From Promethearchaeati archaeon (GTDB lineage Archaea; Asgardarchaeota; Heimdallarchaeia; Heimdallarchaeales; Heimdallarchaeaceae): 64,000 nucleotides of DNA. Below are positions 17,915-34,369 of the stretch, piece after piece. The stretch is taken from positions 1 through 64,000 of the forward strand of contig JABLTJ010000010.1 of NCBI GenBank assembly GCA_013166775.1, given 5' to 3'. The notes beneath the pieces are model-generated. The model was not told the origin of the DNA and did not search any database. It saw only the letters and a list, made by a program, of their open reading frames with translations. Within the stretch, counting starts at the first letter, position 1, and the number at the start of each line of letters is the position of its first letter. Made by a program: the position numbers and the translations under genes.

Positions 17915-18550
17915 ATGAGCTCTTCTAATCCCCATTGCATCTGTATTTGGGAAGAAGAAGAATCATGCGAAGATTGTGAACTTAAAGGGCGATTACACTG
18001 TCATTTAGATACGAGATATTCAGTCATTTTTGGTATACCCTTCTTCATTGCATTCATCCCAACTTTCGTAGGTTTAATTCTGCTTGATTATCCATTAAAT
18101 CTTATCTCAACTCTTACTTGGATTGGATACATAATTTTCTTTTTTCTAATTTGGGAACCCCCCATTCTTTGTGCTCATTGTCCTTATTATGCTGAAGGTG
18201 AAACTAAGTTTCTGCATTGTTCAATTAATTATGGTTTTTTTAAAACAGCAAAATTCAAACCAGGTCCAGCTAGTTTGTGGGAAAAGATTCAGTTTCTAAT
18301 TGGAGCAAATCTAATTTTTGTAATTCCGATGATTTTTCTGATTATTAGTCAGAAATGGGTATATTTAGGTATACTAGTTTTTGGTGTAGTTGTATGGTAC
18401 ATTGTTATTCAATGGAAAATATGCACCGATTGCATAAATTTCTCTTGTATTCTTAATAAAGTCCCCAAAGAAATAAGGGATGAATTCTTGAAAAAAAATC
18501 CCGAAATGTATGGAGCTTGGAAAAAGAGTGGGTATAAATTTGATGAATAG
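17915..18550 (+). CDS. Cys/His-rich membrane protein
   Basis: 4 TM; CEDC, HCH, CAHCPYY, CTDCINFSC. Confidence 0.7.
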   Translation: MSSSNPHCICIWEEEESCEDCELKGRLHCHLDTRYSVIFGIPFFIAFIPTFVGLILLDYPLNLISTLTWIGYIIFFFLIWEPPILCAHCPYYAEGETKFLHCSINYGFFKTAKFKPGPASLWEKIQFLIGANLIFVIPMIFLIISQKWVYLGILVFGVVVWYIVIQWKICTDCINFSCILNKVPKEIRDEFLKKNPEMYGAWKKSGYKFDE

Positions 18551-18570: not shown

Positions 18571-19107
18571 TTGTCTGTTTTAATGAAAATACGACTTGCA
18601 AAAGCTTCTGATGCAGAAGGAATTGCATATGCTGGAGTAAAAACCTGGCAAACAAATTATAGAGGAATCTTCCCTGATGAGGAACTTGATAAACTATCAT
18701 TTAAGGAGGCTATTGGAAGGTGGAAAAAATCTCTTTTATTGAACAGAATCAAAGAAAATTTACAGATTATTGTTGCTGAAGATTTGGAAAAAGGAATTGT
18801 AGGATTTGCTGCAGGAGGAAAGTATGAAAACACAGATCCCTATGATTGTGAAATTGGAGCGATTTATGTGCTTAATGAACATCAAAGAAAGGGAGTAGGA
18901 ACGAAACTTGTAGAGAAAAAAGTAGAATTCTTTCAAACCAAAGGATGGAAATCAATGATAATATGGGCTCTAAAAGACAATTTCCAAAAAGGTTTTTATG
19001 AAAAACTTGGAGGGAAACCTAAAGAAACACAACCATATGAGAAGTGGGGAATGAAATACGAACTTGTTGGGTATGTTTGGGAAGATATAAATGAAATAAT
19101 TTTTTAA
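18571..19107 (+). CDS. GNAT N-acetyltransferase
   Basis: IYV..EHQRKGVG, FYEKLGG. Confidence 0.9.
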   Translation: MSVLMKIRLAKASDAEGIAYAGVKTWQTNYRGIFPDEELDKLSFKEAIGRWKKSLLLNRIKENLQIIVAEDLEKGIVGFAAGGKYENTDPYDCEIGAIYVLNEHQRKGVGTKLVEKKVEFFQTKGWKSMIIWALKDNFQKGFYEKLGGKPKETQPYEKWGMKYELVGYVWEDINEIIF

Positions 19108-19359: not shown

Positions 19360-20316
19360 TTAAAATGATATATTGGGGAATTCTATTCTCTCATTTAGCA
19401 TTTCTTCTTGAACTTCTTTTTTAATTTTAATATAAGTTTCATTGTCTTCTATATCTAATTCCCTTTCTATTCTTTGAAGGATTCTTTCGTAGAACTCTTT
19501 CATCAGACCTTTAAGTACAATCCTAAACCCATGATAAGCCCAGAAAGCTTCTAGATAATCTTTAGCTTCATAAATCACCGTTCTTTCTGCCTTCTTTTCA
19601 TATCCAGGGAAAATGACCATATCCTCTGCAAACTTACTGAAACTATATAGTATTTCAACAATTATTGGGCCAGAAAGAACATAAGGTTTTATCTCTTTAA
19701 GTTTCGTTATTCTTTCAAATGCTTTTTCTTCTAATTGTTTGTATATTTCTTTTAATGGAAAACAGACAAATTTATCTCCTTCCTTTTTCTTAACAGAAAC
19801 TGTTGCAATATCTGGGAAATAATGATTAGCTTCCTTTATAGCTGCATCATCTCCACTAACTAATATTGTTGGGACACCAAAATATCCTGCTAACCAAGCT
19901 GCTTGCTCAATTTCCCCAATAGGTTTTTCATTCATTCGTAAAACCGTAAATCCAGAATTTGTATGAGCTATAAAACCATCGATAGTACCTTCCTGTGCAT
20001 GAAGGCCAATTAAAACTAATGCATCATAATTTCCTAATTTTTCTGAACGAATAAGTTCTGCTAGTGTAACCATCCATCCTCCTCCCAAATAAGATGCAAT
20101 TTCATCAAGATCTTCTAATATCACATTATCTCCCATACCATGACCATCAAAGATGTCTACTTGAATTACTCCAGCTGACTTCAGTCCTTTAATCGCAGCA
20201 TTGATCTCAGCTGTTATTAGATGTTTGTAATTATTATCTTTAAAACCTGTATCTGGATCATCAATTCCAGAAACTCCCTCAATATCAATCCAAATTAATA
20301 CTTTCATAATATTCAC
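19360..20316 (-). CDS. dppA: M55 family D-aminopeptidase
   Basis: DIEGVSG, DGHG, IGLHA, AHT, GE and SGDD metal-binding motifs. Confidence 0.88.
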   Translation of the reverse strand: MNIMKVLIWIDIEGVSGIDDPDTGFKDNNYKHLITAEINAAIKGLKSAGVIQVDIFDGHGMGDNVILEDLDEIASYLGGGWMVTLAELIRSEKLGNYDALVLIGLHAQEGTIDGFIAHTNSGFTVLRMNEKPIGEIEQAAWLAGYFGVPTILVSGDDAAIKEANHYFPDIATVSVKKKEGDKFVCFPLKEIYKQLEEKAFERITKLKEIKPYVLSGPIIVEILYSFSKFAEDMVIFPGYEKKAERTVIYEAKDYLEAFWAYHGFRIVLKGLMKEFYERILQRIERELDIEDNETYIKIKKEVQEEMLNERIEFPNISF

Positions 20317-21169: not shown

Positions 21170-21700
21170 GTGACAACAATTAGAAAACAAAGAATAATCA
21201 AAGACTACGAATCTTTGAGGAAACTCCATAAGGATGGGATAATAGGTCAAGTGAAAGCATATCCAAGTAAAAAGAAATCAATGTATCATTTAGCAGTAGG
21301 TTTCAAGGGACCAAAAGGAACTCCCTACGAAGGTGGAAAATACAAATTAGAGATTTTATTTGGTCCAAATTATCCTTACAAACCACCATTTGTAAGATTG
21401 CATACACCTATCTGGCATCCAAATTTCTGGCCTAATCCAAAAGAATATCCAAAGAAAAGAAATATCTGTTTAGCACTAGTAGATAATGAATTAATTGGAA
21501 AACATGATGGTTGGTCTCCAAGCAAAAATATTACAACAGTTATACATTCAATTTTGGCTATGTTTAATGTTGATGGTGCATATGTAAATCCAAAGGATGT
21601 CTTCAATAAAGATGCAGCACTTGAATTTCTCAAAGATAAGAAAAAATTCACGAAGAAAGCTCAGGGAATAAGTAAGAAGTATGCAAAGTCTTACTGGTAA
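21170..21700 (+). CDS. Ubiquitin-conjugating enzyme E2
   Basis: RI.KD helix, GPKGTPYEGG, YPYKPP, HPN, catalytic Cys in ICL, WSP. Confidence 0.95.
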   Translation: MTTIRKQRIIKDYESLRKLHKDGIIGQVKAYPSKKKSMYHLAVGFKGPKGTPYEGGKYKLEILFGPNYPYKPPFVRLHTPIWHPNFWPNPKEYPKKRNICLALVDNELIGKHDGWSPSKNITTVIHSILAMFNVDGAYVNPKDVFNKDAALEFLKDKKKFTKKAQGISKKYAKSYW

Positions 21701-21742
21701 ATGAACGTATAAAAGAAACCATTGACATAGGAGTATTGAAAA

Positions 21743-22450
21743 ATGCATAACGATGAAGATAAGATTCCTGAGCAATACAAAGAATTATTGAAAAAAATTG
21801 AAGCTATTGAGAAAATCTTAGGTATGTCAGCAATAGATAAAATTGTTGAAGATATGGAAACTGAGAGTGAGATTGTTGTATCTGATGAGGACTTGTTAAT
21901 CACTCCAAGACCTGAAGTAACAATAAAACCTAAAGCCTATTTCAAATTAGCTAAACACGCATTAACATATGCAAATTCGAATATACCTAAGAGAGAGTGG
22001 GTTGAAATCATAGGTCTATTAACAGGGCAAATGGCTAAGGAAGGAACTCCTTTAGAACAAGTTATTGTAGATGACTATTGGCCTGTTGATCAAGGTGATG
22101 CGATAAGTGTTGAAATTGTGGATCAAAAAGTATTCACAGAAATCTTTCATAAAAAGGAATCCACCCAGTTCATAATTGGGTGGGCTCATTCACACCCTAG
22201 TTTTACACCTTTCTTGAGTGATGATGATTTTAGAACACATCTTAGGTATCAAACATTCTGGAACAAATCAATAGCACTAGTAATTGATCCTCTAATGATT
22301 TCTAGAGATGATTATGGTTTAGGTGTTTTTAGAATAGATGATGATAAACAATCCTACTATAAATTATCTATTGAAGTTGAAGGATTGAGCACTCAGGCTA
22401 GCTTTGAATCTATTGACTTATTCATGAAGAATGAAAAAGAGAATGACTAA
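21743..22450 (+). CDS. JAMM/MPN+ metalloprotease (Rpn11/CSN5-like)
   Basis: E(IIGLL)...GWAHSHP...S..D JAMM motif; ALVIDP. Confidence 0.93.
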   Translation: MHNDEDKIPEQYKELLKKIEAIEKILGMSAIDKIVEDMETESEIVVSDEDLLITPRPEVTIKPKAYFKLAKHALTYANSNIPKREWVEIIGLLTGQMAKEGTPLEQVIVDDYWPVDQGDAISVEIVDQKVFTEIFHKKESTQFIIGWAHSHPSFTPFLSDDDFRTHLRYQTFWNKSIALVIDPLMISRDDYGLGVFRIDDDKQSYYKLSIEVEGLSTQASFESIDLFMKNEKEND

Positions 22451-22479
22451 TCTATTGAGCATACAAGGTTGTAAAAAAA

Positions 22480-23622
22480 TTGGAATTGAATAATGTTAAA
22501 ACCTACTTAGCTATTGCAATTATCGGTAGTGTAGTTGGTTTTCTTTATCTGATAATTCAGAGAGAACAAGGTCTTCCAAAAACACTACTATTCTTTTACA
22601 TAACCTTGTATATCATCGCTTTTCTAAGATATGTTCTGGAAAGAAGACATTATAGAAAACATAAAGCTGTAACTGCTAGTACACAATTTCTAATCCTACC
22701 TTTCAGCGTCCTGTTCATGGGAAATTATATCTCACCATTTTCTAATTTTGTTGAGATTTTTGTAATCAATATTAATTTAGTTAGTGGAGATACTGTTCAT
22801 CTGTACTTCAACCTTATCTCTCTCTCTATGATTTTACCTTTGATAGTTTTATCTGTTCTTTTCAACAACTATTTCTCCGGAAAATGGCCAGCAATGGCTG
22901 TTAATAGAAAAATAAGACGAGGACGGCTTATTCCTTTCCTTCTTTTTACATTATTCGTCTTACTTCTGCTATTTGGTTTCTTTATAAATCTAAAAATGGA
23001 TTTTCTTAGTCTCTTCTTTGCTGTGATATACTTTGTGATGTTTATTGGATATTTCATAGTATCTCCCTTACAAAAATCAAGACAACGTACTGTTCAAAGA
23101 ACTCCTGCAGCTTCTACAAGAAGATCACCAACAAGAGCTTCTGCATCATCAAGACAACGTCCATCTACAACATCTACATCAACAAGAAGTAGGCGAAGTA
23201 CTTCTGCACAGACTAGTGGAAGAATTTCTTCTTCATCAGCTAGCAGAAGAAGAGCCGTAACCACAGCTCGAACTACTAGTGCAAAAATTGCCCCTGGAAA
23301 AGACATAACTACAACAAAGAAAGTAACTAGATCTACAACAGTAAGAAGAGGTACAAAGAATATTTTCCCTGTTGGAAGAGCTACTAAAGATGATTTAAAA
23401 TGTATTATCTGTTATATGGATTTCAAAAAATCTGAATCAAGAAAAGTAATTTTATGCCCACATTGTAAATATCCAGCTCATGCTGACGAATTCTTTAACT
23501 GGTTCCAACAATCAAAACTATGTGCAAGATGCAATAAACCCATTTCAACTAAGTATGTAAAATCTCCAATTTACAGAGTTAGTACAAAAGTATACATAGA
23601 AACTGTGATTGAGAAGATATAA
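22480..23622 (+). CDS. Multi-pass membrane protein with C-terminal RING-like domain (putative E3)
   Basis: ~6 TM, S/T/R-rich linker, CIIC-x14-CPHC-x4-H-x2-E..W..CARC. Confidence 0.8.
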   Translation: MELNNVKTYLAIAIIGSVVGFLYLIIQREQGLPKTLLFFYITLYIIAFLRYVLERRHYRKHKAVTASTQFLILPFSVLFMGNYISPFSNFVEIFVININLVSGDTVHLYFNLISLSMILPLIVLSVLFNNYFSGKWPAMAVNRKIRRGRLIPFLLFTLFVLLLLFGFFINLKMDFLSLFFAVIYFVMFIGYFIVSPLQKSRQRTVQRTPAASTRRSPTRASASSRQRPSTTSTSTRSRRSTSAQTSGRISSSSASRRRAVTTARTTSAKIAPGKDITTTKKVTRSTTVRRGTKNIFPVGRATKDDLKCIICYMDFKKSESRKVILCPHCKYPAHADEFFNWFQQSKLCARCNKPISTKYVKSPIYRVSTKVYIETVIEKI

Positions 23623-23704
23623 AAACTATAGAAGCCAAATGATTTAAAAGCAAGGTTTAGTAATAAATTTCTGTAAAATTAAAACGAGCATAATAGGTTT
23701 TAGT

Positions 23705-24292
23705 ATGGGAACAATAACACGTTTGACTTGGTCTTTCCTACTTTCTTTGTCGTTAGTAGGAGTCTCTATCTACTATTTTATTGAAGGAGACTCTCAAATG
23801 GGACGTCTATTTGTTTTCCTAGCTATTTTTGCTTTCCTATCATTTTTCTTTCTTTTCCGGAGTATGTATTATCTTAAGCATAAAGCAACATTCAATGAAT
23901 TCATCTTTGTTTTTGTTTTACCTTTGATTCCAGCATTGATCCTTCTCGCTCAAAAGTTGTTTGGGATAGATGCAATGTTTCTTCTTTCAACTGGGGAATT
24001 AACAACTAGTTTCATAGATTATGAATTTTATATTAATGCCATAGATTTGATGTTACTACCTTATTATCTAGCCAGTAATTTCCTGCTTTTCAGAACATTT
24101 GTCAGATACCCATTTATTAGATTCAGAAGTACAAGTGAAAAAGGTATTCCTCCAAAACTATCCGGATTTCTATTGATGATTCTAATACCAACATTAAACA
24201 TTGTAAGTTCTGTATTTTATTTCAATAACCTATTTCTACTTGTGTTTGGAATGATTTACTTCTATCTAGGAACAATAGCTCTATTTGTTTAA
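23705..24292 (+). CDS. Multi-pass membrane protein, paralog of the TM domain of 22480
   Basis: Shared Y.KHKA, F.LP, Y.N.I.L..LP and F..IYF motifs in the same order. Confidence 0.75.
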   Translation: MGTITRLTWSFLLSLSLVGVSIYYFIEGDSQMGRLFVFLAIFAFLSFFFLFRSMYYLKHKATFNEFIFVFVLPLIPALILLAQKLFGIDAMFLLSTGELTTSFIDYEFYINAIDLMLLPYYLASNFLLFRTFVRYPFIRFRSTSEKGIPPKLSGFLLMILIPTLNIVSSVFYFNNLFLLVFGMIYFYLGTIALFV

Positions 24293-24399
24293 ATAGAACC
24301 TTGAAACGATTCTCAATATTCAATAAAGAATACAACTTTTCTTTCAAAATCAGAAACTGTTTTTAAACTGATAATAGATAACTAAATATCAATATTAGG

Positions 24400-24993
24400 T
24401 TGGGAAAGAAAATGATTCCTCGCTGTGCTGTTTGTGGAAATCGAAGTGTTACTACTAAATATTTCAATTCTAGAACAAGGAAACTTTACTGTTCTAAAGA
24501 GTGTATGCAAATTTCAAATAGAAAGAGTTTTTTGTATGTTAGCATTTTCATGATAGTTGTAACACTTGCTGGTGGTATATCTGCGTTTATTCTTCTTAGA
24601 GAACAAGATCTAATATTATCTATTGCTCCACTCATTGTTATAGGTTTTGGTGTTCCTTTCAGTCTCTATCTATTTACTCAATATCTAAAAGGGAGACAAT
24701 TAGTAAAATCAAGAAGTATCGAATCTGAAAATATAATTTATTCATGCCTATTTTGTAATCATGAATATGAAAACAGGATTTTTGGAGCACCTACAATATG
24801 TCAAAAATGTGGAAAAGAATCTCCTTTTTGTGACATTTGTTATGAATATATATTTGCTGGAAAACCTGTCTACCAAATACAAAACTGTGGACACATATTC
24901 CATAAAACTGATCTCTTAGACTATCTTGAGAATGAAGAGACCTGTCCAAAATGTAAACAAGAAATAAGTTCGATTAACTTAAAAATCAAATAG
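24400..24993 (+). CDS. Two-TM protein with zinc fingers and C-terminal RING-H2 (putative E3)
   Basis: CAVC..CSKEC; 2 TM; CLFC..CQKC; CDIC-x15-CGHIFH-x2-D...CPKC. Confidence 0.85.
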   Translation: MGKKMIPRCAVCGNRSVTTKYFNSRTRKLYCSKECMQISNRKSFLYVSIFMIVVTLAGGISAFILLREQDLILSIAPLIVIGFGVPFSLYLFTQYLKGRQLVKSRSIESENIIYSCLFCNHEYENRIFGAPTICQKCGKESPFCDICYEYIFAGKPVYQIQNCGHIFHKTDLLDYLENEETCPKCKQEISSINLKIK

Positions 24994-25021
24994 ATGTTTA
25001 AAATCAAGTTTTCAAAAGTAT

Positions 25022-25783
25022 CTATTTTGGTTTCTTCTGTTTAGGTTTCTTTTGTTCTGGTACTTTGTATCTCAAAGGTGTCTTCTGCTTTGGAATCTTT
25101 TGTAGAGGTTGTTTTTGTGCTGGGATTTTGGTTTTCTTAATCTCTTCTATTTCTCTGGTTACTGGTGTTTCCTTTTTCTTTTTCTCCTTTCTTTCTTCTT
25201 TCGGAGCTGGTCGCGATTCTTTACTTTTAAAATCAGAGAATTTTTCACTATCATTGATTGGAGGTGACCCCTCTTCTTTCTCCCTCTTTTCTTCTCTTGG
25301 AACTGATTTTGATTCTTTACCTTTAAAATCAGAGAATTTTTCGCTATCGTTTATTGGAGGTGGTGTTTCCTCTTTCACCTTCTTCTTAGGTGGTTCTTTG
25401 TCTGGAATATATTTAATGGGTTTTTTTTCTTTGAGTTTATCTTGCTTAGGAATTTTCGACTTGGGTATTTTTTGTTTTGGAATTCCTTTACTTCTACTCT
25501 TTGTTTGATTGAGCTTCTGTTGTGTAGGTTTTTTTTCAGTAATCTTGCTCTTGGGTATTCCTTTATTTCTTCTATCTGCATTCAAATCCTTAATTTCGGA
25601 CTTAGTGGGACTACTTATTTCTTTAGTTTGCTTCTGTTTTCTTGGTGGAACAATATATTCCTCTCTTATTTTGTGTTTAGGAGGAGTATCTTTAGGTATC
25701 TTTGTTTTTGGTATTTTTTCAGATGGGATTTTTTGTTTTGGTATTTTCGAGTTAACTCTTTTCTTCTCCTTTTTTCTTGCCAA
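25022..25783 (-). CDS. Lys/Pro-rich low-complexity repeat protein
   Basis: TTG start with GGTGG SD-like motif; many KIPK(Q/S/T) units; PPINDSEKFSDFK occurs twice. Confidence 0.75.
   Translation of the reverse strand: MARKKEKKRVNSKIPKQKIPSEKIPKTKIPKDTPPKHKIREEYIVPPRKQKQTKEISSPTKSEIKDLNADRRNKGIPKSKITEKKPTQQKLNQTKSRSKGIPKQKIPKSKIPKQDKLKEKKPIKYIPDKEPPKKKVKEETPPPINDSEKFSDFKGKESKSVPREEKREKEEGSPPINDSEKFSDFKSKESRPAPKEERKEKKKKETPVTREIEEIKKTKIPAQKQPLQKIPKQKTPLRYKVPEQKKPKQKKPK
25215..25362. repeat. Intragenic 52-bp direct repeat, 96-bp period
   Basis: 25215-25266 and 25311-25362 both encode PPINDSEKFSDFKxKES. Confidence 0.85.
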
Positions 25784-26010
25784 TTGAAACCCACCTTTAA
25801 ATCAAATTTCTCTCTTAAATTAAGAACCTCTGTACTATTTATTTCTATGTTAATTATATTGTTTCTGGTAGTCCAATAAAAGGTTCTAACACTATAATAG
25901 TTTATTTAGAATCTTAAATAAGAAATATTTAAAATTTCGATACTAAAGATATTCTTAAAAGGTTATATTTGATAGTAAAACTTGATTTATAACATAAGAG
26001 GTTGGTATAA

Positions 26011-26367
26011 ATGAGCGAAGAATTTGAAGAATTATCCTTCGATGAAGAAGAGGAAGAAATTGAAGAAGTCGTTGAAGAAGAAATCGTATCAAAAACACCT
26101 TCAACTAAGACTCCAGCTGGAAAGAAAATAAGTGTTTATTTCCAAAGCACAATTGGACCAAGTCCAAAACAAGAAAAACTAGTAGTTGCAACTGATGCAC
26201 CTATTGATGATATAAAATACACTGTAAGTCAAATCTTTGGACTTCCACCTGAAGAATTTCATCTTTCTCATGCAGGAAGAACCTGTGATCCTGGCGATAC
26301 TTTTGAAGACTACGGTGTTGAAGACGGAGACACTGTATTACTAATACCCGTTTCTACAGCAGGATAA
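26011..26367 (+). CDS. Ubiquitin/SUMO-like modifier with acidic N-terminal extension
   Basis: Beta-grasp pattern ISVYFQ..LVV..PIDDIK..GLPPEE..L..AGR....T.EDYGVEDGDTVLL; ends in STAG. Confidence 0.9.
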   Translation: MSEEFEELSFDEEEEEIEEVVEEEIVSKTPSTKTPAGKKISVYFQSTIGPSPKQEKLVVATDAPIDDIKYTVSQIFGLPPEEFHLSHAGRTCDPGDTFEDYGVEDGDTVLLIPVSTAG

Positions 26368-26389
26368 ATTTGTTTAATATTTTTTAGAG

Positions 26390-26445
26390 AGAGAATCAAG
26401 GTTCTCTTATCTTTTTCTTTATTTTCTATTCATCTTTTCTTTCAC
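26390..26445 (+). terminator. Hairpin plus T-rich tract after the Ubl gene
   Basis: agagaa-tcaagg-ttctct followed by a long pyrimidine-rich run. Confidence 0.4.
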
Positions 26446-26510
26446 TGCCTAAAGGAAATAAAATAAAAAAGTTGAAATATAAGAATCAATGATTTTGAGT
26501 ATATACTATA

Positions 26511-27788
26511 ATGAGTGTAATCACAATGAATCAAGACACTAGAAAATCAAATAATTCAAACTTCTTCAGTGAAGCTCTTAGTTCAGTAGAAAGAGTAAGA
26601 TTTGATAGACAACTAAGACTTCCAGGTTGGAATCAGAAAGCTCTGAAAGATTCTACTGTTCTCATAGTAGGTGTAGGAGGATTGGGAACAGAAGTAGCAA
26701 AGAATCTAGCAATGGCAGGAGTAGGTGTTCTACATCTAATAGATTTAGACATCATTGAACATTCTAATCTTAATAGACAAATTTTATTTTATGATGCTGA
26801 GGAAGGAGAACCCAAATCAAAAGTTGCTGCTCGAACACTAAGAAAAATAAATCCTCATAGTAGGTATATTTGGCATTACTCAAATCTTGAAGATGTTGAT
26901 CCAGAGATATATGCGACAGCTGATTTATACATAGCTGGTCTAGATTCTGTAACAGCAAGGAATGAGCTAATACGTAGGGCTGTTCATTTTAAGAAACCAA
27001 TGATTGACGGAGGAACAGCAACATACTATGGGCATGTCTATACATATCTACCAGACGAAAATTCTTGTCTGCAATGTGATCCTCAAAGAGAAAGAGAGCG
27101 AGAAACTCTTGCAGCTTGTACTCTCGTAGGTGTTCCTAGAAAGAGATCTCACTGTTTGCTGAAGGGACAACTATTTTTTGAATCAAAGCATAATAGACCA
27201 CCAGATACAACTGTGGTAGATGAAGTGAAAATAGCTTTAGATTATGCTAATGATTTGGTAAAAGAACATTTTCCTGACTCAGGTTTATTCACTTTGGATG
27301 AGGCTGTAAAAATGATTGATCAACATGATCCAACGGTAATTTCAATTAATGCAGTAATAGCTTCAATCCAAACTCAAGAATCATTAAAACTATTACATCA
27401 TATTAAAGGAATTAAACTGGGGACAGTAAATCCAGAATATCTGATATACAATGGATTAGTAGGGAAGTTCTTCTATATAGAAAAACCACCCAACAAGGAA
27501 TGCCATCTATGTGGTTCAAATGCACCAATAATTGAAACTATTGAATTGCCTGATACATCTACACTAGACATGATACTGCCAATTATCAAGAACAGAGGAT
27601 ACACCTTTGATCCTGAGCTACTACCTAATTTCTGGCTAATGGATTTGAAAGAAATGAAAGAAGCGCAAAAAGGTTTTACTTTGAAAGAACAAAAAATAAG
27701 AAACTACGAAACAGTTTATGTGACCGGTCTCTCAAAAGATAACGAAGAAATTGATGTTTATTTACGGATTTTATTAAAGAGCAGATAG
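26511..27788 (+). CDS. Ubiquitin-like activating enzyme E1 (Uba2/Uba3-like)
   Basis: RFDRQ, GVGGLG, SNLNRQ, GLDS..AR, CLQC...CHLC zinc site, catalytic ACTLVGVPR...HC, C-terminal UFD-like segment. Confidence 0.93.
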   Translation: MSVITMNQDTRKSNNSNFFSEALSSVERVRFDRQLRLPGWNQKALKDSTVLIVGVGGLGTEVAKNLAMAGVGVLHLIDLDIIEHSNLNRQILFYDAEEGEPKSKVAARTLRKINPHSRYIWHYSNLEDVDPEIYATADLYIAGLDSVTARNELIRRAVHFKKPMIDGGTATYYGHVYTYLPDENSCLQCDPQRERERETLAACTLVGVPRKRSHCLLKGQLFFESKHNRPPDTTVVDEVKIALDYANDLVKEHFPDSGLFTLDEAVKMIDQHDPTVISINAVIASIQTQESLKLLHHIKGIKLGTVNPEYLIYNGLVGKFFYIEKPPNKECHLCGSNAPIIETIELPDTSTLDMILPIIKNRGYTFDPELLPNFWLMDLKEMKEAQKGFTLKEQKIRNYETVYVTGLSKDNEEIDVYLRILLKSR

Positions 27789-27806: not shown

Positions 27807-28715
27807 TTGTTGAGAAGACCTTCTCATAAAAAGAGAAAGATTAATAAATGCTTCTTTCTACCCCTAAATGTGCAAATAAAAAAACTTAGCAACTATAATC
27901 CTGATAAAGAAGTTGAAATAAATGTTAAGGATATGGTTGCATGGAATTTTATTAGAGTTGACAGATTTCTACAATATCTTAGGGACAACAGAAGGGAAAT
28001 ACTAGAAATTTTCATCACCAATCTAGAACAAAAGTACACTTCAGTAACTAGAACGAAATACAAACTATCAGATATAGATATTTTCACTGAAACTTTCGAG
28101 AAACTCCAAATAGTAAAGAACCATCCTAATCTTCTAGATTCAATCATTAATCTCGTTCTTTCAGCTCTAGAAATCACTTCTGATTTTAAATGGGAATCAT
28201 CTGTATTGAATGTCGCACAGATAACTACAAAGAGAGCTTGGTTAGATTCTCATATTTATTTCTCTGAGCTTCTTACAGAAATGCTAGATAGAGAAGAAGC
28301 GATAAATTTTCTTCGAAACTATTTTGTTTTTAATGTGAATGAATATGGAAACATAAAACAACATGAATCCTTACAATCTGGTTTTAAGTCAGATTATGAG
28401 AGTGGTAAAAGAGATGAGAACACAAAACTTGTTTCGATTTTACTAAATGAAGGTCTATATGCTACAAGAGTTGATATATGTATGTTATCTGAAGCATTGA
28501 AAGAATATCCTGATTCTGAAATCAAACATACAGTTTGTTGTTCTGCTGATCATGCTATAGTGAAAAAAGCAAATGAAAATTTTGTCTTGACAAGAACATC
28601 AACATTGATGAATGGTCCTTACTGTGATTTCTGCTGTCATGATACAAGAATCATGGAAAAGATTGAGCATCCTTCAAAGGAATTTTATGAAAAGCTTGGA
28701 GAAAGTGAAATTTAA
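27807..28715 (+). CDS. ATC-hydrolase/V4R-like family protein, copy 1 (likely start GTG 27870)
   Basis: DIC...CCSAD...LTRTSTLMNGPYCDF. Confidence 0.8.
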   Translation: MLRRPSHKKRKINKCFFLPLNVQIKKLSNYNPDKEVEINVKDMVAWNFIRVDRFLQYLRDNRREILEIFITNLEQKYTSVTRTKYKLSDIDIFTETFEKLQIVKNHPNLLDSIINLVLSALEITSDFKWESSVLNVAQITTKRAWLDSHIYFSELLTEMLDREEAINFLRNYFVFNVNEYGNIKQHESLQSGFKSDYESGKRDENTKLVSILLNEGLYATRVDICMLSEALKEYPDSEIKHTVCCSADHAIVKKANENFVLTRTSTLMNGPYCDFCCHDTRIMEKIEHPSKEFYEKLGESEI

Positions 28716-29050
28716 TGGCAAAAAAATACCCAGTAAAAATAACTATTGTAAGAAAATTCAGCTCAGAAGAAGTATTTGGGCATGAACACTACTATCCAGA
28801 TGGTAGAAAATCAACTCTATGTCCACATTTTGACGAAAATGAAGAAATAATCATCGATCATGCTTACATCGATTTACCATCTGATTGGCCTTGTTCATGG
28901 GCATGGATGGACTTATGGAAGGATTTATCAGTTTTATCCCTAGGAGGAGATTTTAGTCACACTGAACCTAGAATAACATATACAACCTGTAGGGATGGAA
29001 CCAAACCAGTTGTTTTCAAACTGGAAAGAATAGAAGAAGAGGAAGAATAA
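28715..29050 (+). CDS. TIGR04076-family small Cys protein
   Basis: CP..., C.WAW, C.DG..PVVFKLERI; start overlaps the upstream stop (TAATG). Confidence 0.85.
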   Translation: MAKKYPVKITIVRKFSSEEVFGHEHYYPDGRKSTLCPHFDENEEIIIDHAYIDLPSDWPCSWAWMDLWKDLSVLSLGGDFSHTEPRITYTTCRDGTKPVVFKLERIEEEEE

Positions 29051-29052
29051 TT

Positions 29053-29919
29053 ATGAAAATAGAGAATTATAAATGCTTTAGTTTGACAAAAAAAGAAAAA
29101 TTCACACCTGAAAATTTTATAAAAGTAAGACTTCAGAGAATTGATTTAGTTCTTAAAATCTTTAAATCAATCAAACCTGATGAATTGAACATTTATGTTT
29201 CAAATTTAAAAGATAAATTCAGCGAAATTGTTGTTGATTATAATTTTAATGTTGAAGCTTTTAATTGGGATTTCATAAGAGAAGAATTGACTATTTTACG
29301 AAATTTCCCTGATCTAGAAAGACTAATTTTTCTCTACGCTTGTATGACTGTAGATTTACCTGAAGATTATGTGAATGAACAGGGAGAAATAGAAGCTCCA
29401 TATTTTGACCTAAGAAAAACAGGAGAAAGAATCTCTTATTATATAGTAAGAACTTTGGTAGATACTTATGGAAAAGAAGAAGGTACTGAAATCTATAAAC
29501 AAATAGCTCCGGAAATTATCAGAGAGTATAGGGCTAAAGATCAACCAGAAGAACCCAAAGAGCCAAAAACTATTACAGTTGCAGAAAACAATAAGAAATA
29601 TGTAGAAGCATGGTGCAGAGTTGGTCTTGCAGATTTTACTTCTTGTTTAATTGATGATTATAAAGTAGTATATCGTTTTGACAGTTGCTTAACTCCAGAA
29701 GCTTTGAAAGACTTCAACGACCCAGATATTGCATACTTATGTTCATGTTACATAGCAGATATTCCAGAATTTAACGAGGGTAGAACAATTCATCTACGAA
29801 GAACTCAAACTTTACATCACGCTAAATTCTGTGATGAGTTCTATTGGAATAATTCAGTCTATCCTGATGCAGAACAACCATCTTTAGAGTTTACAGAAAA
29901 GATAGGAAAAGATTTGTGA
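29053..29919 (+). CDS. ATC-hydrolase/V4R-like family protein, copy 2
   Basis: FDSC...YLCSC...RRTQTL...FCDE. Confidence 0.82.
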   Translation: MKIENYKCFSLTKKEKFTPENFIKVRLQRIDLVLKIFKSIKPDELNIYVSNLKDKFSEIVVDYNFNVEAFNWDFIREELTILRNFPDLERLIFLYACMTVDLPEDYVNEQGEIEAPYFDLRKTGERISYYIVRTLVDTYGKEEGTEIYKQIAPEIIREYRAKDQPEEPKEPKTITVAENNKKYVEAWCRVGLADFTSCLIDDYKVVYRFDSCLTPEALKDFNDPDIAYLCSCYIADIPEFNEGRTIHLRRTQTLHHAKFCDEFYWNNSVYPDAEQPSLEFTEKIGKDL

Positions 29920-30806
29920 AAATAAAATCAGGTGCTAAGATGAAAATTACAACCCATGATTTTTTCAACAAAGAATCTAAAAGTGATATCAAGCTTAATG
30001 AGTTTATTAAGAAATGCTTTGAGCAAACTGATTCAGTAATTAAATATTTCAAAGAATTTAGAGAAAATAAATTAGATGAATATGTGTTTGCATTGCAGAA
30101 TAGATTAAAGAGTGAATTAAAAGAATCTCAATATAAAATAGATATTTTTAAACTCGATGAAATAGAAAAGAATCTTTCTTTACTCCATAATTATCCTGAA
30201 ATGGAAGAAACAATCATAAATTTTATCTGGAAGATATTAGATATCCCAAAAGATTTTGATACTCTAAATGAAAAATTCAATCTCTTATATTTCAACATCA
30301 GGAAAGCTGAAAGGCATCTATCTTACTATAGAGTAAAAGCTATTGAGGATCTATTAGGAAAAGAGGAATGCATAAAAGTATACAAGAATATTGTTGAATA
30401 TCTAATCAAAGAAATGAAAGAACAAGAATCTAGAGAACAACCAGAAGATCCAATGAAGGTAACACGAATTGAATCAAGGAAGTTTGTGCTCGAAAACTAT
30501 AAGAAACTTGGAGTTGGGGATTTTACGCTCGGAATCTATGATGATTACAAGGAAATATACCGATTCGATAGATGTATTGTGCATGAAGTTCTAAAGGACT
30601 TTAATGATCCAGATATCGCTTATCTTAGCTCTTGCTATTTAAGAGATTCACCAAGTAACAATGAAGGCTATATTATTCACATGAGAAAAACACAAACCTT
30701 GCATCATAACAAATTCTGTGACGAGTTTTATTGGAATAATTCTGTCTATCCTGATGCAGAACAACCATCATTGGAGTTTACTGAAAATATGGGGAAAGAT
30801 AAGTGA
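29916..30806 (+). CDS. ATC-hydrolase/V4R-like family protein, copy 3
   Basis: FDRC...YLSSC...KTQTL...FCDE. Confidence 0.82.
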   Translation: MKIKSGAKMKITTHDFFNKESKSDIKLNEFIKKCFEQTDSVIKYFKEFRENKLDEYVFALQNRLKSELKESQYKIDIFKLDEIEKNLSLLHNYPEMEETIINFIWKILDIPKDFDTLNEKFNLLYFNIRKAERHLSYYRVKAIEDLLGKEECIKVYKNIVEYLIKEMKEQESREQPEDPMKVTRIESRKFVLENYKKLGVGDFTLGIYDDYKEIYRFDRCIVHEVLKDFNDPDIAYLSSCYLRDSPSNNEGYIIHMRKTQTLHHNKFCDEFYWNNSVYPDAEQPSLEFTENMGKDK

Positions 30807-30830
30807 AAAAAAAAGAAGGAGTAAGATAAA

Positions 30831-31694
30831 ATGAAGAGTGAAAGTTACAAATGTTATAGTTTAACAAAGAAGGGAAATATGAAACCAATTGGTTTAATTC
30901 ATGCTAGGATGGAGAGAACAGATTTTGTTTTGCAATCTCTTCACAAACTCAAACCAGAGGATATGAACAAATATGTCTCTCATTTAACAGATAAATTGAG
31001 TGAAATTGTTGGTGATTATACATTTGAGATGAATGTTTTTGACTGGAATTTTATAAGAAAGGATTTGGAAATTCTTCCAAATTTTCCCCAATTAGAAAAA
31101 GCAATTTTCTATTGGTCATGCAAAACGTTAAAATTACCTGACAACTATAAATCGGATCAAGGAGAAATAGAGTTAGTATTTTTTGATGAAATCAAATCGA
31201 ATGAGAGATTATCGTACCATAGAGTAAAAACCTTTGTTGAAATCTATGGTGAAGATTTGGGAACAGAACTTTACAAGCAGATTGTACCAGAAGTGGTTAA
31301 AGCTCTAAAATCGAAGTATTTAGGAGAAAAACCTGCTGATCCTAAGTCAGTAAATATTCTAGTTTCGAATAAAAGATCAATTGAATCTTGGTGCAAAACT
31401 GGTTTAGCAGATTTTAGTTTTCATATTTTTGATGATTATAAAATTGTATACCGTTTTGACAGTTGTTTAACTCCAGAAGCATTAAAAGACTTCAAAGACC
31501 CAGATATTGCATACCTAGCTTCTTGTTACATAGGTGATGTACCTGAATGGAATAAGGATAAAATTATCCATCTTCGAAGAACACAGACTCTTCATCATGC
31601 TGAATTCTGTGACGAAATGTATTGGAATAATTTAGTTCATCCAGATGCAGAACAGCCATCTTTAGAATTTACAGAAAATATGGGTAAAGAATAA
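30831..31694 (+). CDS. ATC-hydrolase/V4R-like family protein, copy 4
   Basis: FDSC...YLASC...RRTQTL...FCDE. Confidence 0.82.
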   Translation: MKSESYKCYSLTKKGNMKPIGLIHARMERTDFVLQSLHKLKPEDMNKYVSHLTDKLSEIVGDYTFEMNVFDWNFIRKDLEILPNFPQLEKAIFYWSCKTLKLPDNYKSDQGEIELVFFDEIKSNERLSYHRVKTFVEIYGEDLGTELYKQIVPEVVKALKSKYLGEKPADPKSVNILVSNKRSIESWCKTGLADFSFHIFDDYKIVYRFDSCLTPEALKDFKDPDIAYLASCYIGDVPEWNKDKIIHLRRTQTLHHAEFCDEMYWNNLVHPDAEQPSLEFTENMGKE

Positions 31695-31723
31695 AATAAG
31701 TAGAAAAAAAGGAATGAATTAAA

Positions 31724-32587
31724 ATGAAAACAGAGAGTCATAAATGTTATAGTCTAACAAAGAAAGGAAATATTAATCCGAGTAATGTGATTAAAGAAAG
31801 GATGGAACGAACTGATTTAGTGATAAAGTTCTTCCACAAGTTAAAACCTGAGGATCTGAATCTATATATTAATACTCTAAAAGACAAATTAGATGAAATT
31901 GTGGGTGATTATGAATTCGATGAGAGTGCTTTCGACTGGGAGTTTTTAAGAGAAGGAAATGAAGTGCTTTCTGATTTTCCAGATTTTGAAAAAACAGTTT
32001 TTCTGTGGATCTGTAAAACACTTAAGATTCCTGATACCTATCATTCAGAAAAAGGAGCAATAGAACTAGTATATTTCGATGAAATCAAATCAAAAGCGAG
32101 GTTGCCATATTATAGAGTAAAAACTTTTGCTGAAATGTATGGTAAAGAGGAGGGAATAGAGATATACAAACAAGTTGTACAAGAAGTGATTAAAGCTCTA
32201 AAATCGAAGTATATGCCTCCAAAACCACCCAATCCAGAATCAATAACTATTCTAGCGTCTAATAAAGGTTCTATTGAATCTTGGCGTAGAATCGGTTTAG
32301 TGGATTTCACATACTGTATTTTCGATGATTTTAAGATAATTTACCGTTTTGATAATTGCTTAACTCCAGAAGCATTAAAAGATTTCAATGATCCTGATAT
32401 AGCCTATCTAGCTACCTGTTATATTGGTGATGCACCTGAATGGAATAAGGATAAAATCATTCATATGAGAAGAACACAAACTCTTCATCATGCTAAATTC
32501 TGTGATGAATTTTATTGGAACAACTATGTGCATCCAGATGCTGAACAACCATCATTAGAGTTTACAAGAAATATGGGGAAGGATTAG
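31724..32587 (+). CDS. ATC-hydrolase/V4R-like family protein, copy 5
   Basis: FDNC...YLATC...RRTQTL...FCDE. Confidence 0.82.
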   Translation: MKTESHKCYSLTKKGNINPSNVIKERMERTDLVIKFFHKLKPEDLNLYINTLKDKLDEIVGDYEFDESAFDWEFLREGNEVLSDFPDFEKTVFLWICKTLKIPDTYHSEKGAIELVYFDEIKSKARLPYYRVKTFAEMYGKEEGIEIYKQVVQEVIKALKSKYMPPKPPNPESITILASNKGSIESWRRIGLVDFTYCIFDDFKIIYRFDNCLTPEALKDFNDPDIAYLATCYIGDAPEWNKDKIIHMRRTQTLHHAKFCDEFYWNNYVHPDAEQPSLEFTRNMGKD

Positions 32588-32599
32588 GAGGAATAAGAA

Positions 32600-33472
32600 A
32601 TGGAAGTTTTTAGAACAGGCAAATATCATATAAGTGATCTTGATAATCTTCAAGAACTACAACCTTTGGAATATGCAAATAGAACTGTCTTAAAGAGATT
32701 GAATTATCTAATTGGATTCATTAAGAAAGAGAAACCTGAAATATTACAAAATTTCGTTACTAAACTAAATCTTAAACTTGTCAAGCTTCTGAATAAACCC
32801 TATGTTAATGAAGGGGATGACGAAGAAAAAATTGTAAGCAAAGATTTTATTCATCTGAAAGTTTTTCCAGAACTTTTATACAATTGCTTGAATTATTATC
32901 TTCAATTACTTAATATCGATACTTCAATGAACTGGAGTGAAGACAAAATCAAAATCCCAAACAGGAACTATATTCAATCTTTTCTTTATCATAGATATTA
33001 CAATGCTTTGGTTTTAACAGAGATATTGGAGAGAAATCTAGCTGTTCAGATTTTCAAAGATTATATTGATTCTTATGTTAAATCACAATCAACAGATTGG
33101 AGAAAATACGAGAACTTAGAAGAATTTAGGGAAGCTAGAATACCTAAGAAAGATGATCCACCTAACATAGGCTGGATTATTGTACAAGGAATTATTGAAA
33201 ATGGTAAATACCCTCAGAAAAAAATAACATGTATGTGGGCTGATGCTATCACAGATTTACCTGACACTGAATTAAAATATCTTGCAGCATGTTATGGAGA
33301 TTTTCAAGGATATAATAATAATAATGAGAATTTTGTATTAACAATGAGTCATACAATTGTTGAAGGATATCCTTATTGCGATTGTATTGTACATGATATA
33401 AGAGTAAACAAAGATCTAACACATCCACCAAAGGAATTTTTTGATAACATATGGCAATTGAAAGAAGATTGA
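32600..33472 (+). CDS. ATC-hydrolase/V4R-like family protein, copy 6
   Basis: TCMW...ACYGD...LTMSHTIVEGYPYCD. Confidence 0.82.
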   Translation: MEVFRTGKYHISDLDNLQELQPLEYANRTVLKRLNYLIGFIKKEKPEILQNFVTKLNLKLVKLLNKPYVNEGDDEEKIVSKDFIHLKVFPELLYNCLNYYLQLLNIDTSMNWSEDKIKIPNRNYIQSFLYHRYYNALVLTEILERNLAVQIFKDYIDSYVKSQSTDWRKYENLEEFREARIPKKDDPPNIGWIIVQGIIENGKYPQKKITCMWADAITDLPDTELKYLAACYGDFQGYNNNNENFVLTMSHTIVEGYPYCDCIVHDIRVNKDLTHPPKEFFDNIWQLKED

Positions 33473-33475
33473 AAT

Positions 33476-34369
33476 TTGCAAAAAAGAGGTGAAAAAATGG
33501 AGTTTGAAAAAATAGGCGTTTATAATCCAGATGCTTTGTATGCTTTACAGGAGATACAACCTCTGGAATTTGCACTGCGTTCACCAATTAAGCGTTTAGA
33601 TTTTATAATAGGCTTTCTTAAAAAAAGGAAACCAGAAATTGTAGAAGCTTATGTTAAAAAGCTTGAAGAAAAATACGGAAAATTGGCGACAAAATCATAC
33701 GTTGATCAATCTGATATTGATATTAAGAAAATGATATCGGATTTATCAAATCTAAAGGAGTTTCCTGATTTAGCGAAAAGAAGTCTAAATCTTTTTCTTA
33801 ACTTACTAGAGATTGAAGATAATACTGACTGGATCAAAGAAAAGACAAAAATCATTCAGAAGAATTATATTAAATCATTCTTGGGACCAAAATATTACAA
33901 CATTGAGAGCTTAGTGAATATAATTGAAAGAGAAGAAGCAGTTCAGTTATACAAGAATTATATTACTGAATTTATGATCGATTACTATAAAGATATGGAA
34001 GATAATGTAGAAGATCTAGATGCTTTTTGGAAAAAACGCTTCCAAAACTATGCGGAAGATGAATCAGATCATTGGGTTGTCATTCATAGTAAACCTAACA
34101 AAGGTAAACTGATTTACCGAAAAGATGTTTGTCTTTGGATTGATGCTATGGAGGATTTTACAGATACAGAGTTTAAATATCTAGTGTGCTGTTATGGTGA
34201 TTTTCAAGGAGCTAAAAGAGAGAATAAGCATTTCATATTAACAATGGATCATACAATTGCAAAAGGTGATCCTTTTTGTAGTTGTATTCTCCATGATACA
34301 AGGATCGATTGGGATCTAACACATCCCCCAAAAGAATTTTGGGATAGCATTTGGCCATTACAGGAATAG
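33476..34369 (+). CDS. ATC-hydrolase/V4R-like family protein, copy 7
   Basis: VCLW...CCYGD...LTMDHTIAKGDPFC. Confidence 0.82.
   Translation: MQKRGEKMEFEKIGVYNPDALYALQEIQPLEFALRSPIKRLDFIIGFLKKRKPEIVEAYVKKLEEKYGKLATKSYVDQSDIDIKKMISDLSNLKEFPDLAKRSLNLFLNLLEIEDNTDWIKEKTKIIQKNYIKSFLGPKYYNIESLVNIIEREEAVQLYKNYITEFMIDYYKDMEDNVEDLDAFWKKRFQNYAEDESDHWVVIHSKPNKGKLIYRKDVCLWIDAMEDFTDTEFKYLVCCYGDFQGAKRENKHFILTMDHTIAKGDPFCSCILHDTRIDWDLTHPPKEFWDSIWPLQE

Follow-up and report, generated by a model that had tools for sequence, protein, structure and literature searches.

A probable second ubiquitin-like conjugation system with a membrane-anchored RING ligase candidate in Heimdallarchaeia

A gene cluster on contig JABLTJ010000010.1 of the Heimdallarchaeaceae assembly GCA_013166775.1 probably encodes a second, self-standing Asgard system for the conjugation of a ubiquitin-like modifier (Ubl), which is paralogous to the Gly-Gly ubiquitin (Ub) system and has its ligase (E3) at the membrane. 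The window analysed comprises 64,000 nucleotides, positions 1 to 64,000 of the forward strand of this contig (C102 of the host genome G000, which counts 3.85 Mb in 115 contigs at 31% G+C). Heimdallarchaeota AB_125 falls in the same genus as the host, and no known archaea are closer to eukaryotes than the Heimdallarchaeia, especially the Hodarchaeales. All eight open reading frames (ORFs) reported for the cluster by a first-pass annotation were found at their coordinates between 21170 and 27788. They encode a conjugating enzyme (E2), a JAMM metalloprotease of the JAB family, a six-transmembrane (6-TM) protein with a C-terminal RING finger (TMRING1), its RING-less remote paralog (TMpar), a 2-TM RING protein (TMRING2), a Lys-rich protein, the Ubl and a long activating enzyme (E1) (Table 1). 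In the public records consulted, these proteins are named 'hypothetical' or generic ThiF.

The conserved module consists of the E2, the JAMM protease, the 6-TM RING protein, TMpar, the Lys-rich protein, one or two Ubls ending in [V/H/A]STAG and the long, UBA3-like E1. Within the genus, the Ubl was detected in 22 of the 24 other genomes at 84-100% identity, and every sufficiently long contig carries the core order E2-JAB-TMRING1-TMpar-Lys-rich gene (opposite strand)-Ubl-E1. Beyond the genus, two more genera of the family have the long E1, as do Kariarchaeaceae (58-62% identity), Hodarchaeales (~50%) and family f6. The loci of these last three groups contain one or two Ubls ending in [V/H]STAG, an E2, a JAB, a 6-TM RING protein, TMpar and a protein with 18-29% Lys, in a different gene order. 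Of 1.84 billion cluster representatives, a profile of the TMRING1 membrane domain matched only 49, and almost every one of these shows the same build of TM domain, linker and RING; the remotest members lie behind Ubl-E1-E2-JAB or behind JAB. A screen of 399 genomes of the phylum located the membrane domain in the four families of the Heimdallarchaeia, in three genera (21 of 134 genomes) of the Promethearchaeia family f20, and in no other family. The f20 loci hold a Lys-rich gene, two ASTAG Ubls, E1, E2, JAB and a TM-RING gene; TMpar was not detectable in them.

Presence of the long E1 and of the TM-RING gene was counted in 83 Heimdallarchaeia genomes, which, being kin, are not independent. Both genes are present in 52 genomes and both are absent from 27, including two closed genomes of the host's family, which makes them concordant in 79 of 83. 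The long E1 occurs without TM-RING in three genomes, all at contig ends, and TM-RING without the long E1 in a single one. The coincident absences within Kariarchaeaceae (three genomes) and Hodarchaeales (three genomes) are telling despite this kinship. According to the first-pass annotation, its proposal of a membrane-directed system was to be given up if the membrane genes were not kept beside E1, E2 and Ubl. They stand beside E1, E2, Ubl and JAB in several Asgard families and co-occur with the long E1, so that the proposal came through this test.

The same genome also encodes a canonical system. A second cluster on contig C27 (L013:2469-8653) comprises an 83-aa (amino acid) Ub ending in ..KGGF, a 335-aa E1, a 469-aa UEV/Vps23-core/Vps28 fusion and an EAP30-like gene. 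Gly-Gly Ub systems of this kind, linked to the ESCRT machinery of endosomal sorting, are treated in PMC9192718 and bioRxiv 10.1101/2023.07.25.550441. A 522-aa TnpB/Cas12f-like ORF (Cas12f1-like_TNB, 1.5e-15) is located a few genes from this cluster. The genome further contains a stand-alone E2 and a stand-alone JAB of 280 aa (L129:3874-4716, contig C56), which adjoins genes for an F420 ligase and a pterin-binding enzyme.

The other Ub and JAB copies of the genome are much nearer to the Caldiarchaeum proteins than the cluster copies are. Against the Caldiarchaeum Ub, the canonical Ub scores 62 bits and the cluster Ubl 27 bits; against the Caldiarchaeum Rpn11 homolog, the stand-alone JAB scores 91 bits and the cluster JAB 53 bits, and the stand-alone JAB is the closer homolog of both the Caldiarchaeum and the eukaryotic Rpn11. 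The cluster Ubl is only 23% identical to the host's own canonical Ub. Missing from the canonical short E1s are the insert that follows the catalytic Cys (profile positions 206-266) and the greater part of the C-terminal tail. In an E1 tree of 38 rows, the cluster E1s (support by the Shimodaira-Hasegawa-like approximate likelihood ratio test, SH-aLRT, 98), the canonical E1s (95) and a third paralog from Hodarchaeales (99) form separate clades. The branching of the cluster E1s tracks taxonomy, which suggests mainly vertical descent with losses. Having its own E1 clade, a divergent Ubl and JAB, and a canonical counterpart on another contig, the cluster is distinct from the ESCRT-linked Gly-Gly Ub operon of the same genome; sequence comparison supports the first-pass annotation, which had suggested that it may be a distinct system.

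The third paralog belongs to a further Ubl cassette of Hodarchaeales (L121:6505-9684 in G065:C38 and L122:6072-9656 in G057:C1). It encodes a 262-aa Zn-ribbon protein, a 106-109-aa Ubl ending in ..DQIKGG, a 408-aa E1 and a divergent E2 (UQ_con, 9e-25). The E1 of this cassette carries the Cys-domain insert and is sister to the clade of cluster E1s (SH-aLRT 88).

The catalytic motifs of the three cluster enzymes, previously described as intact, are invariant across lineages. In the E1, this applies to the GxGGLGxE motif of the adenylation domain, the Zn cysteines C186/C189/C331/C334 and the catalytic C203, which aligns with the catalytic Cys motif of UBA3. By sequence, no match is better or longer than that to UBA3 (9.4e-32, residues 46-361), and the same holds for the E1 profile, which matches UBA3 with 5.6e-49 over positions 35-378 of 417; UBA1 and UBA2, the latter from the SUMO E1, match the adenylation half only. 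The AlphaFold2 (AF2) model of the E1, with a predicted local distance difference test (pLDDT) value of 84, gives a full-length Foldseek match to UBA3 (4.6e-25). It places helices at 212-298 following C203, a ~60-aa helical insert, and a beta-alpha-beta tail at 340-422, which on this model is beta-grasp-like and of the ubiquitin-fold-domain (UFD) type. The likeness to UBA3, the catalytic subunit of the NEDD8 E1, extends over the adenylation domain, the CT..P....HC motif, the helical Cys insert, the CxxC..CxxC pattern and the ubiquitin-fold-like tail. The two differ in that identity is only ~23% and in that the Asgard cluster has no gene for an APPBP1/SAE1-type partner. No second ThiF-type gene occurs in the cluster or the syntenic loci, and the other ThiF genes of the genome lie on other contigs. 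The E1 is therefore presumably a homodimer.

In the E2, HPN, C100, Y68/P69 and W115/P117 are invariant in the alignment of Heimdallarchaeia families, whose orthologs are 61-86% identical. The loop between HPN and Cys100 is ~7 residues longer than usual (FWPNPKEYPxKRN) and conserved, and the canonical RING-contact loops NYPYKPP and GWSPS are retained; matches in the PDB are generic UBC folds (~1e-15). The JAMM residues E88, H149, H151, S159 and D162 are invariant in 15 orthologs, and the best PDB matches are the Caldiarchaeum Rpn11-like protein (3.6e-13) and then Rpn11. The protease is the probable C-terminal processing enzyme of the Ubl and its deconjugase. In some species, the Ubl carries 1-3 residues after the terminal Gly, among them the natural extensions K, C, WI and SIN, which implies processing. 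A sulfur-carrier role of the MoaD/ThiS type for the system was considered and rejected, since E2, RING and JAMM genes are conserved partners.

The Ubl is built of an acidic N-terminal tail with K-T-P motifs at K28 and K33, a beta-grasp core and the end ..LLIPVSTAG; this end is invariant within the genus. Every ortholog seen ends in Ala-Gly (..IP[V/H/A]STAG) instead of Gly-Gly. The host genus has a single Ubl gene. Many other lineages have two in tandem or close by, a short one (..HSTAG/..ASTAG) and one with a longer N-terminal extension (..VSTAG), as at L084:3378-4098 and at loci L089, L093, L094, L095, L099, L100, L105, L107 and L109. The f20 module additionally encodes a 2-TM protein with a C-terminal ubiquitin-like domain (Pfam ubiquitin, 2.9e-4) and no terminal Gly. 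Its gene separates the two ASTAG Ubl genes and is encoded on the opposite strand (L105:4392-5201, minus strand; L107:4743-5537; L109:4871-5680).

The Lys-rich protein has neither Cys nor Trp and is packed with K-[I/T]-P units; its ESM Atlas model has a pLDDT of 0.42. Across families, the gene is kept in the module with common motifs, although the sequences cannot be aligned. The window's protein contains ten K[ITV]P motifs against 1.47 expected, a number reached in none of 2000 shuffles, and enrichment over composition is significant in the Lys-rich proteins of most lineages. In 12 of 13 cluster Ubls, the N-terminal tail contains two to three K-[I/T/V]-P motifs, usually exactly two, 5-6 residues apart, compared with one motif in the canonical Ub and none in the Ubl of the third system. 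The shared motif argues for a functional link between the two genes, and its distribution suggests that K-[T/I]-P may be an acceptor or docking motif. Membrane proteins, the targets suggested by the first-pass annotation, may or may not be substrates; the one conserved candidate for a substrate or adaptor is the Lys-rich protein, soluble and disordered as predicted. A protein-atlas search for structural look-alikes of this protein and of TMpar returned nothing usable.

TMRING1 combines a membrane domain of six predicted TM helices (AF2 pLDDT ~80-93), a linker that is of low complexity (S/T/R/P) in all orthologs, with pLDDT <50 at residues 206-291, and a C-terminal finger (pLDDT 84-92). The positive-inside rule gives an N-in/C-in topology. 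Because the positive loops share one side with the basic linker, the RING is predicted to be cytoplasmic; the siting of this ligase candidate at the membrane is well supported. As modelled, the membrane domain is a family-specific fold. Foldseek gave no clear solved relative, only RING-domain matches and weak G-protein-coupled receptor (GPCR) rows; the best matches across VIA (Z 7-8) are unrelated helical proteins, and the ESM Atlas returned only the family's own cluster.

In the finger, whose pattern is C-x2-C-x14-C-x2-C-x4-H-x2-E-x10-C-x2-C, Glu occupies the place of the sixth ligand and a Trp follows four residues on. Invariant in 29 orthologs are C308, C311, C326, C329, H334, E337, W341, C348, R350 and C351, which form the string C-x2-C-x14-C-x2-C-x4-H-x2-E-x3-W-x6-C-x-R-C; the His of 'CPHC' is variable and hence not a ligand. 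Foldseek matched the finger to RING/U-box domains with a probability of 0.96-0.98, including EL5, the HRD1 RING (TMt 0.70, root-mean-square deviation 1.9 A) and RNF165, and VIA aligned it to 3lrq with Z 7.4 and to Ring1b with Z ~7. Hits to Prok-RING_1 or zf-RING_2 below threshold occur in 18-19 of 21 orthologs (Prok-RING_1 in 19 of 21). The finger is called a RING because of the conserved ligand set, the RING/U-box match of the AF2 model and these sub-threshold hits. It is always the C-terminal domain of a six-helix protein of 360-465 aa and never a small soluble RING.

TMpar adjoins TMRING1 across Heimdallarchaeia families and is very Lys-poor. BLASTP found no similarity between the two proteins; their paralogy, which the first-pass annotation had suggested, emerges from hhalign alone, with 95.6% probability and an E value of 1.2e-8 over 161 columns of the TMRING1 membrane domain. 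A complex prediction for this domain and TMpar, run without controls, scored 0.01 and speaks neither for nor against an association.

The membrane-anchored RINGs were confirmed in part. All RINGs inside the cluster are membrane-anchored, as had been claimed, but genome-wide many RING-matching ORFs lie elsewhere. Both ligase candidates of this particular cluster are integral membrane proteins; TMRING2, however, is not a conserved part of it. TMRING2 consists of a Zn ribbon, a 2-TM hairpin, a second Zn ribbon and a RING-H2 with Asp at the sixth ligand. It stands between TMpar and the Lys-rich gene only in the host and its nearest relative G006 (68% identity), and many paralogs of the same build occur in unrelated contexts in the host and other genomes, so that it is best seen as a recent, lineage-specific insertion outside the core. 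In the alignment of its family, seven of eight members have Asp or Glu at the sixth ligand, like the Glu of TMRING1. One paralog (G000:C16:12554-13066) contains an in-frame TGA and an in-frame TAG and may be a pseudogene.

The components suggest the following course of conjugation. The Rpn11-like JAMM protease would trim the residues past the terminal Gly of the Ubl and later undo conjugation. The UBA3-like E1 would adenylate the Ala-Gly end, load the Ubl onto Cys203 and hand it to Cys100 of the dedicated E2, which the ubiquitin-fold tail of the E1 may recruit. The cytoplasmic variant RING of TMRING1, probably jointly with TMpar, would then discharge the E2~Ubl onto lysines; as this RING sits at the membrane, conjugation would occur at the cytoplasmic face of the cell membrane. 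The best acceptor or docking candidates would be the Lys-rich protein and the Ubl tail with their common K-[T/I]-P motifs, but that these two are the targets is held with much lower confidence than the system itself and the siting of its E3. A fuller version appears doubtful: a heteromeric RING/RING-less E3 that directs membrane tagging by motif, with K-[T/I]-P acceptors, chains that grow as in SUMO2/3 on the two motifs of the Ubl tail, and the Lys-rich protein with its up to ten motifs as a dedicated multi-site substrate that is coated or cross-linked at the membrane, would make the system a pre-eukaryotic forerunner of membrane-bound ligases.

Several points weigh against a second conjugation system with a membrane E3. 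All Pfam RING matches of the TMRING1 finger are below cut-off. The finger has C-x2-C at ligands 3/4 and Glu at ligand 6, and the 'linchpin' position right after the last Cys holds no Arg or Lys, with an invariant Arg between the last two Cys instead. E3 activity is consequently not assured for such an atypical, sub-threshold finger, and many other RING proteins of the genome could serve the cluster E2. TMpar was not detected in the f20 module and so is not indispensable. The modifier does not end in Gly-Gly, and the activation of an Ala-Gly tail is a putative step. The E1 tree is the product of a quick search with SH-aLRT values only, is midpoint-rooted on a long MoeB-like branch and contains no eukaryotic or Caldiarchaeum rows.

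The unusual finger would be accommodated if TMRING1 were not a ligase at all and the E2 read K-[T/I]-P directly, as Ubc9 does with the SUMO consensus, leaving TMRING1 and TMpar as anchor, receptor, regulator or substrates. The conserved longer loop beside the catalytic Cys of the E2 and the short lysine motif common to the Ubl tail and the Lys-rich protein also fit this explanation. It is nevertheless rather unlikely. The 29 orthologs show little or no variation at the eight ligand positions, at the Ile that follows the first Cys or at the Trp that follows ligand 6; these residues contact the E2 in RING ligases and are essential in the Caldiarchaeum RING (PMC5654768). Moreover, both RING-contact loops of the E2 are kept, and the fold of the finger matches RING E3 domains.

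The enzymes could also form a conflict system that tags invader proteins, such as those of viruses, at the membrane, in the manner of Bil or of Cap2/Cap3 from the cyclic-oligonucleotide-based antiphage signalling system (CBASS). Bacterial operons with the same enzyme classes function in defence (PMC11601603), CBASS E1-E2 models give weak matches to the adenylation domain of the E1, and the spread is patchy: several families and two closed genomes of the host's own family lack the module, and in f20 it is confined to three genera. Yet no specific PADLOC or NCBIfam defence model was matched: in PADLOC, the E2, the Ubl and the membrane proteins had no hits, the E1 matched generic adenylation domains only and the JAB reached E ~3e-3, while NCBIfam gave nothing above its cut-offs for the cluster components. 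A single-copy locus with the same neighbours throughout the genus, the high identities of Ubl (within the genus) and E2 given above and an E1 tree that follows taxonomy are unlike fast-evolving, mobile defence islands, which makes this origin quite improbable. An ordinary Asgard or Caldiarchaeum-type Ub operon with chance membrane neighbours is very unlikely and the least credible alternative. Caldiarchaeum does have the same enzyme classes (PMC5654768) and an E1 reported to have a Cys domain of ~60 aa (PMC11354881). Against this stand the separate Gly-Gly Ub/E1/UEV-Vps23 cluster, whose Ub is much nearer to that of Caldiarchaeum, the stand-alone JAB, for which the same holds, the separate E1 clades, the fusion of RING and membrane domain in every member, and the synteny and co-occurrence of the membrane genes with the E1.

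Table 1. Features of the Ubl conjugation cluster, in coordinates of the window
Feature	Position	Strand	Size	Basis and remarks
E2	21170-21700	+	176 aa	Pfam UQ_con 3.2e-27
Rpn11-like JAMM metalloprotease	21743-22450	+	235 aa	Pfam JAB 8.8e-12
TMRING1 (6-TM RING protein)	22480-23622	+	380 aa	Pfam zf-RING_2 0.0098, below cut-off
TMRING1 membrane domain	22480-23094	+	residues 1-205	hydropathy, AF2, loop charges
TMRING1 linker	23095-23352	+	residues ~206-291	Ser/Thr/Arg-rich, basic, disordered
TMRING1 variant RING finger	23377-23622	+	residues ~300-380	ligand alignment, Foldseek, VIA
TMpar	23705-24292	+	195 aa	RING-less remote paralog; no Pfam family
TMRING2 (2-TM RING)	24400-24993	+	197 aa	zf-RING_2 1e-7, 32.5 bits, above cut-off
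Lys-rich protein	25022-25783	-	253 aa	27.7% Lys; no Pfam family
Divergent intergenic region	25784-26010			AT-rich; between Lys-rich (minus) and Ubl (plus) genes; presumed shared promoter region
Ubl	26011-26367	+	118 aa	Pfam ubiquitin 1.2e-6, above cut-off; C-terminus ..PVSTAG-stop
Long E1	26511-27788	+	425 aa	Pfam ThiF 2.6e-51

Upstream, the cluster is flanked by an M55 D-aminopeptidase family gene (4e-55; 19360-20316, minus strand) and a GNAT-like gene (18571-19107, plus strand); a Cys-rich 211-aa membrane protein (17915-18550) is a neighbour kept within the genus. Downstream of the E1 follow an array of ATC_hydrolase-family paralogs (27807-34369) and a 111-aa Cys-rich protein (28715-29050). 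G006, G019 and G021, the nearest relatives, are the only other genomes in which the array succeeds the E1; further species of the genus have it at another place near the cluster. The array was rejected as a part of the system, being adjacent to the E1 in nearest relatives only.

If activity is confirmed, the diversification into several parallel Ubl pathways and membrane-sited ligation of the ubiquitin type would both predate eukaryotes; close archaeal relatives of eukaryotes probably possessed ubiquitin-style tagging at a membrane. The module brings together a membrane-built ligase candidate, a UBA3/UBA2-like E1 and a modifier with a SUMO-like flexible tail. As a small and fully defined gene set with a candidate substrate and motif, it makes the origin of membrane E3s and the specificity of Ubls testable in vitro. 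In comparison with known systems, it appears to be a previously unreported variant of the archaeal E1/E2/RING/JAMM systems. Published Asgard work concerns the Gly-Gly Ub operon, its soluble RING ligase and its ESCRT link, and a full-text literature search, which covered few subscription journals, found no Asgard system with a membrane RING and an Ala-Gly Ubl.

The bacterial Bil and CBASS Cap2/Cap3 operons likewise pair Ubl, E1, E2, JAB and sometimes a RING (PMC11601596, PMC11601603). In contrast to the Cap2-type fusions, the Asgard E1 and E2 are separate and eukaryote-like, and they are highly conserved with a vertical-looking history.

With the eukaryotic ligases Hrd1 of endoplasmic-reticulum-associated degradation (ERAD) and Doa10/MARCH, TMRING1 shares a multi-pass membrane domain with a cytoplasmic RING, and its RING superposes on that of HRD1. 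The order C4-H-x-C2, the PHD/RINGv-like spacing and the Trp after ligand 6 recall RING-CH/PHD fingers of the C4HC3 type, the type to which prokaryotic RINGs have been assigned (PMC11354881), and the possible pair of a RING and a RING-less subunit resembles heteromeric membrane E3 complexes. The differences are considerable. In the TM domain, Hrd1 (9uav_B) is matched with Z 7.7 over 113 residues, a value within helical-bundle noise, and the ligand pattern is not RING-H2 (C3H2C3). The modifier is not ubiquitin, and Glu replaces Cys at ligand 6; the RINGv/MARCH profile gave no hit at E<=1 in TMRING1 and its orthologs, and Der1-, Sel1- and Cdc48-type genes are absent from the module's conserved genes. 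Of the analogy to ERAD/MARCH-type ligases drawn by the first-pass annotation, the likeness in architecture therefore stands, but kinship is not supported, given no RINGv hit and no convincing solved relative of the membrane domain.

The closest characterised counterpart is the operon of Caldiarchaeum subterraneum (Rpn11, Ub, E2-like, E1-like and small RING), which has been reconstituted in vitro, with an ATP-dependent cascade of E1 and E2 thioesters, RING-dependent formation of isopeptide bonds and processing by Rpn11 (PMC5654768). Like this operon and the ESCRT-linked Asgard operons, the cluster encodes the same five classes together: an E1 with adenylation domain and catalytic Cys, a UBC-type E2 with HPN, Cys and RING-contact loops, a protease with an Rpn11-like JAMM site, a beta-grasp modifier and a RING-type finger of the cross-brace kind, in which Ile and Trp are retained as E2 contacts. 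Some modifiers need trimming past the terminal Gly in both, and both have an insert in the E1 Cys domain. The cluster differs in its Ala-Gly Ubl with an acidic tail and two K-T-P motifs, in the fusion of its RING to a six-helix domain via a basic linker, in the Glu that stands in place of the sixth Zn ligand, in its partners TMpar and the Lys-rich protein, and in its coexistence with a canonical Ub system, from which its E1 is set apart in a clade of its own.

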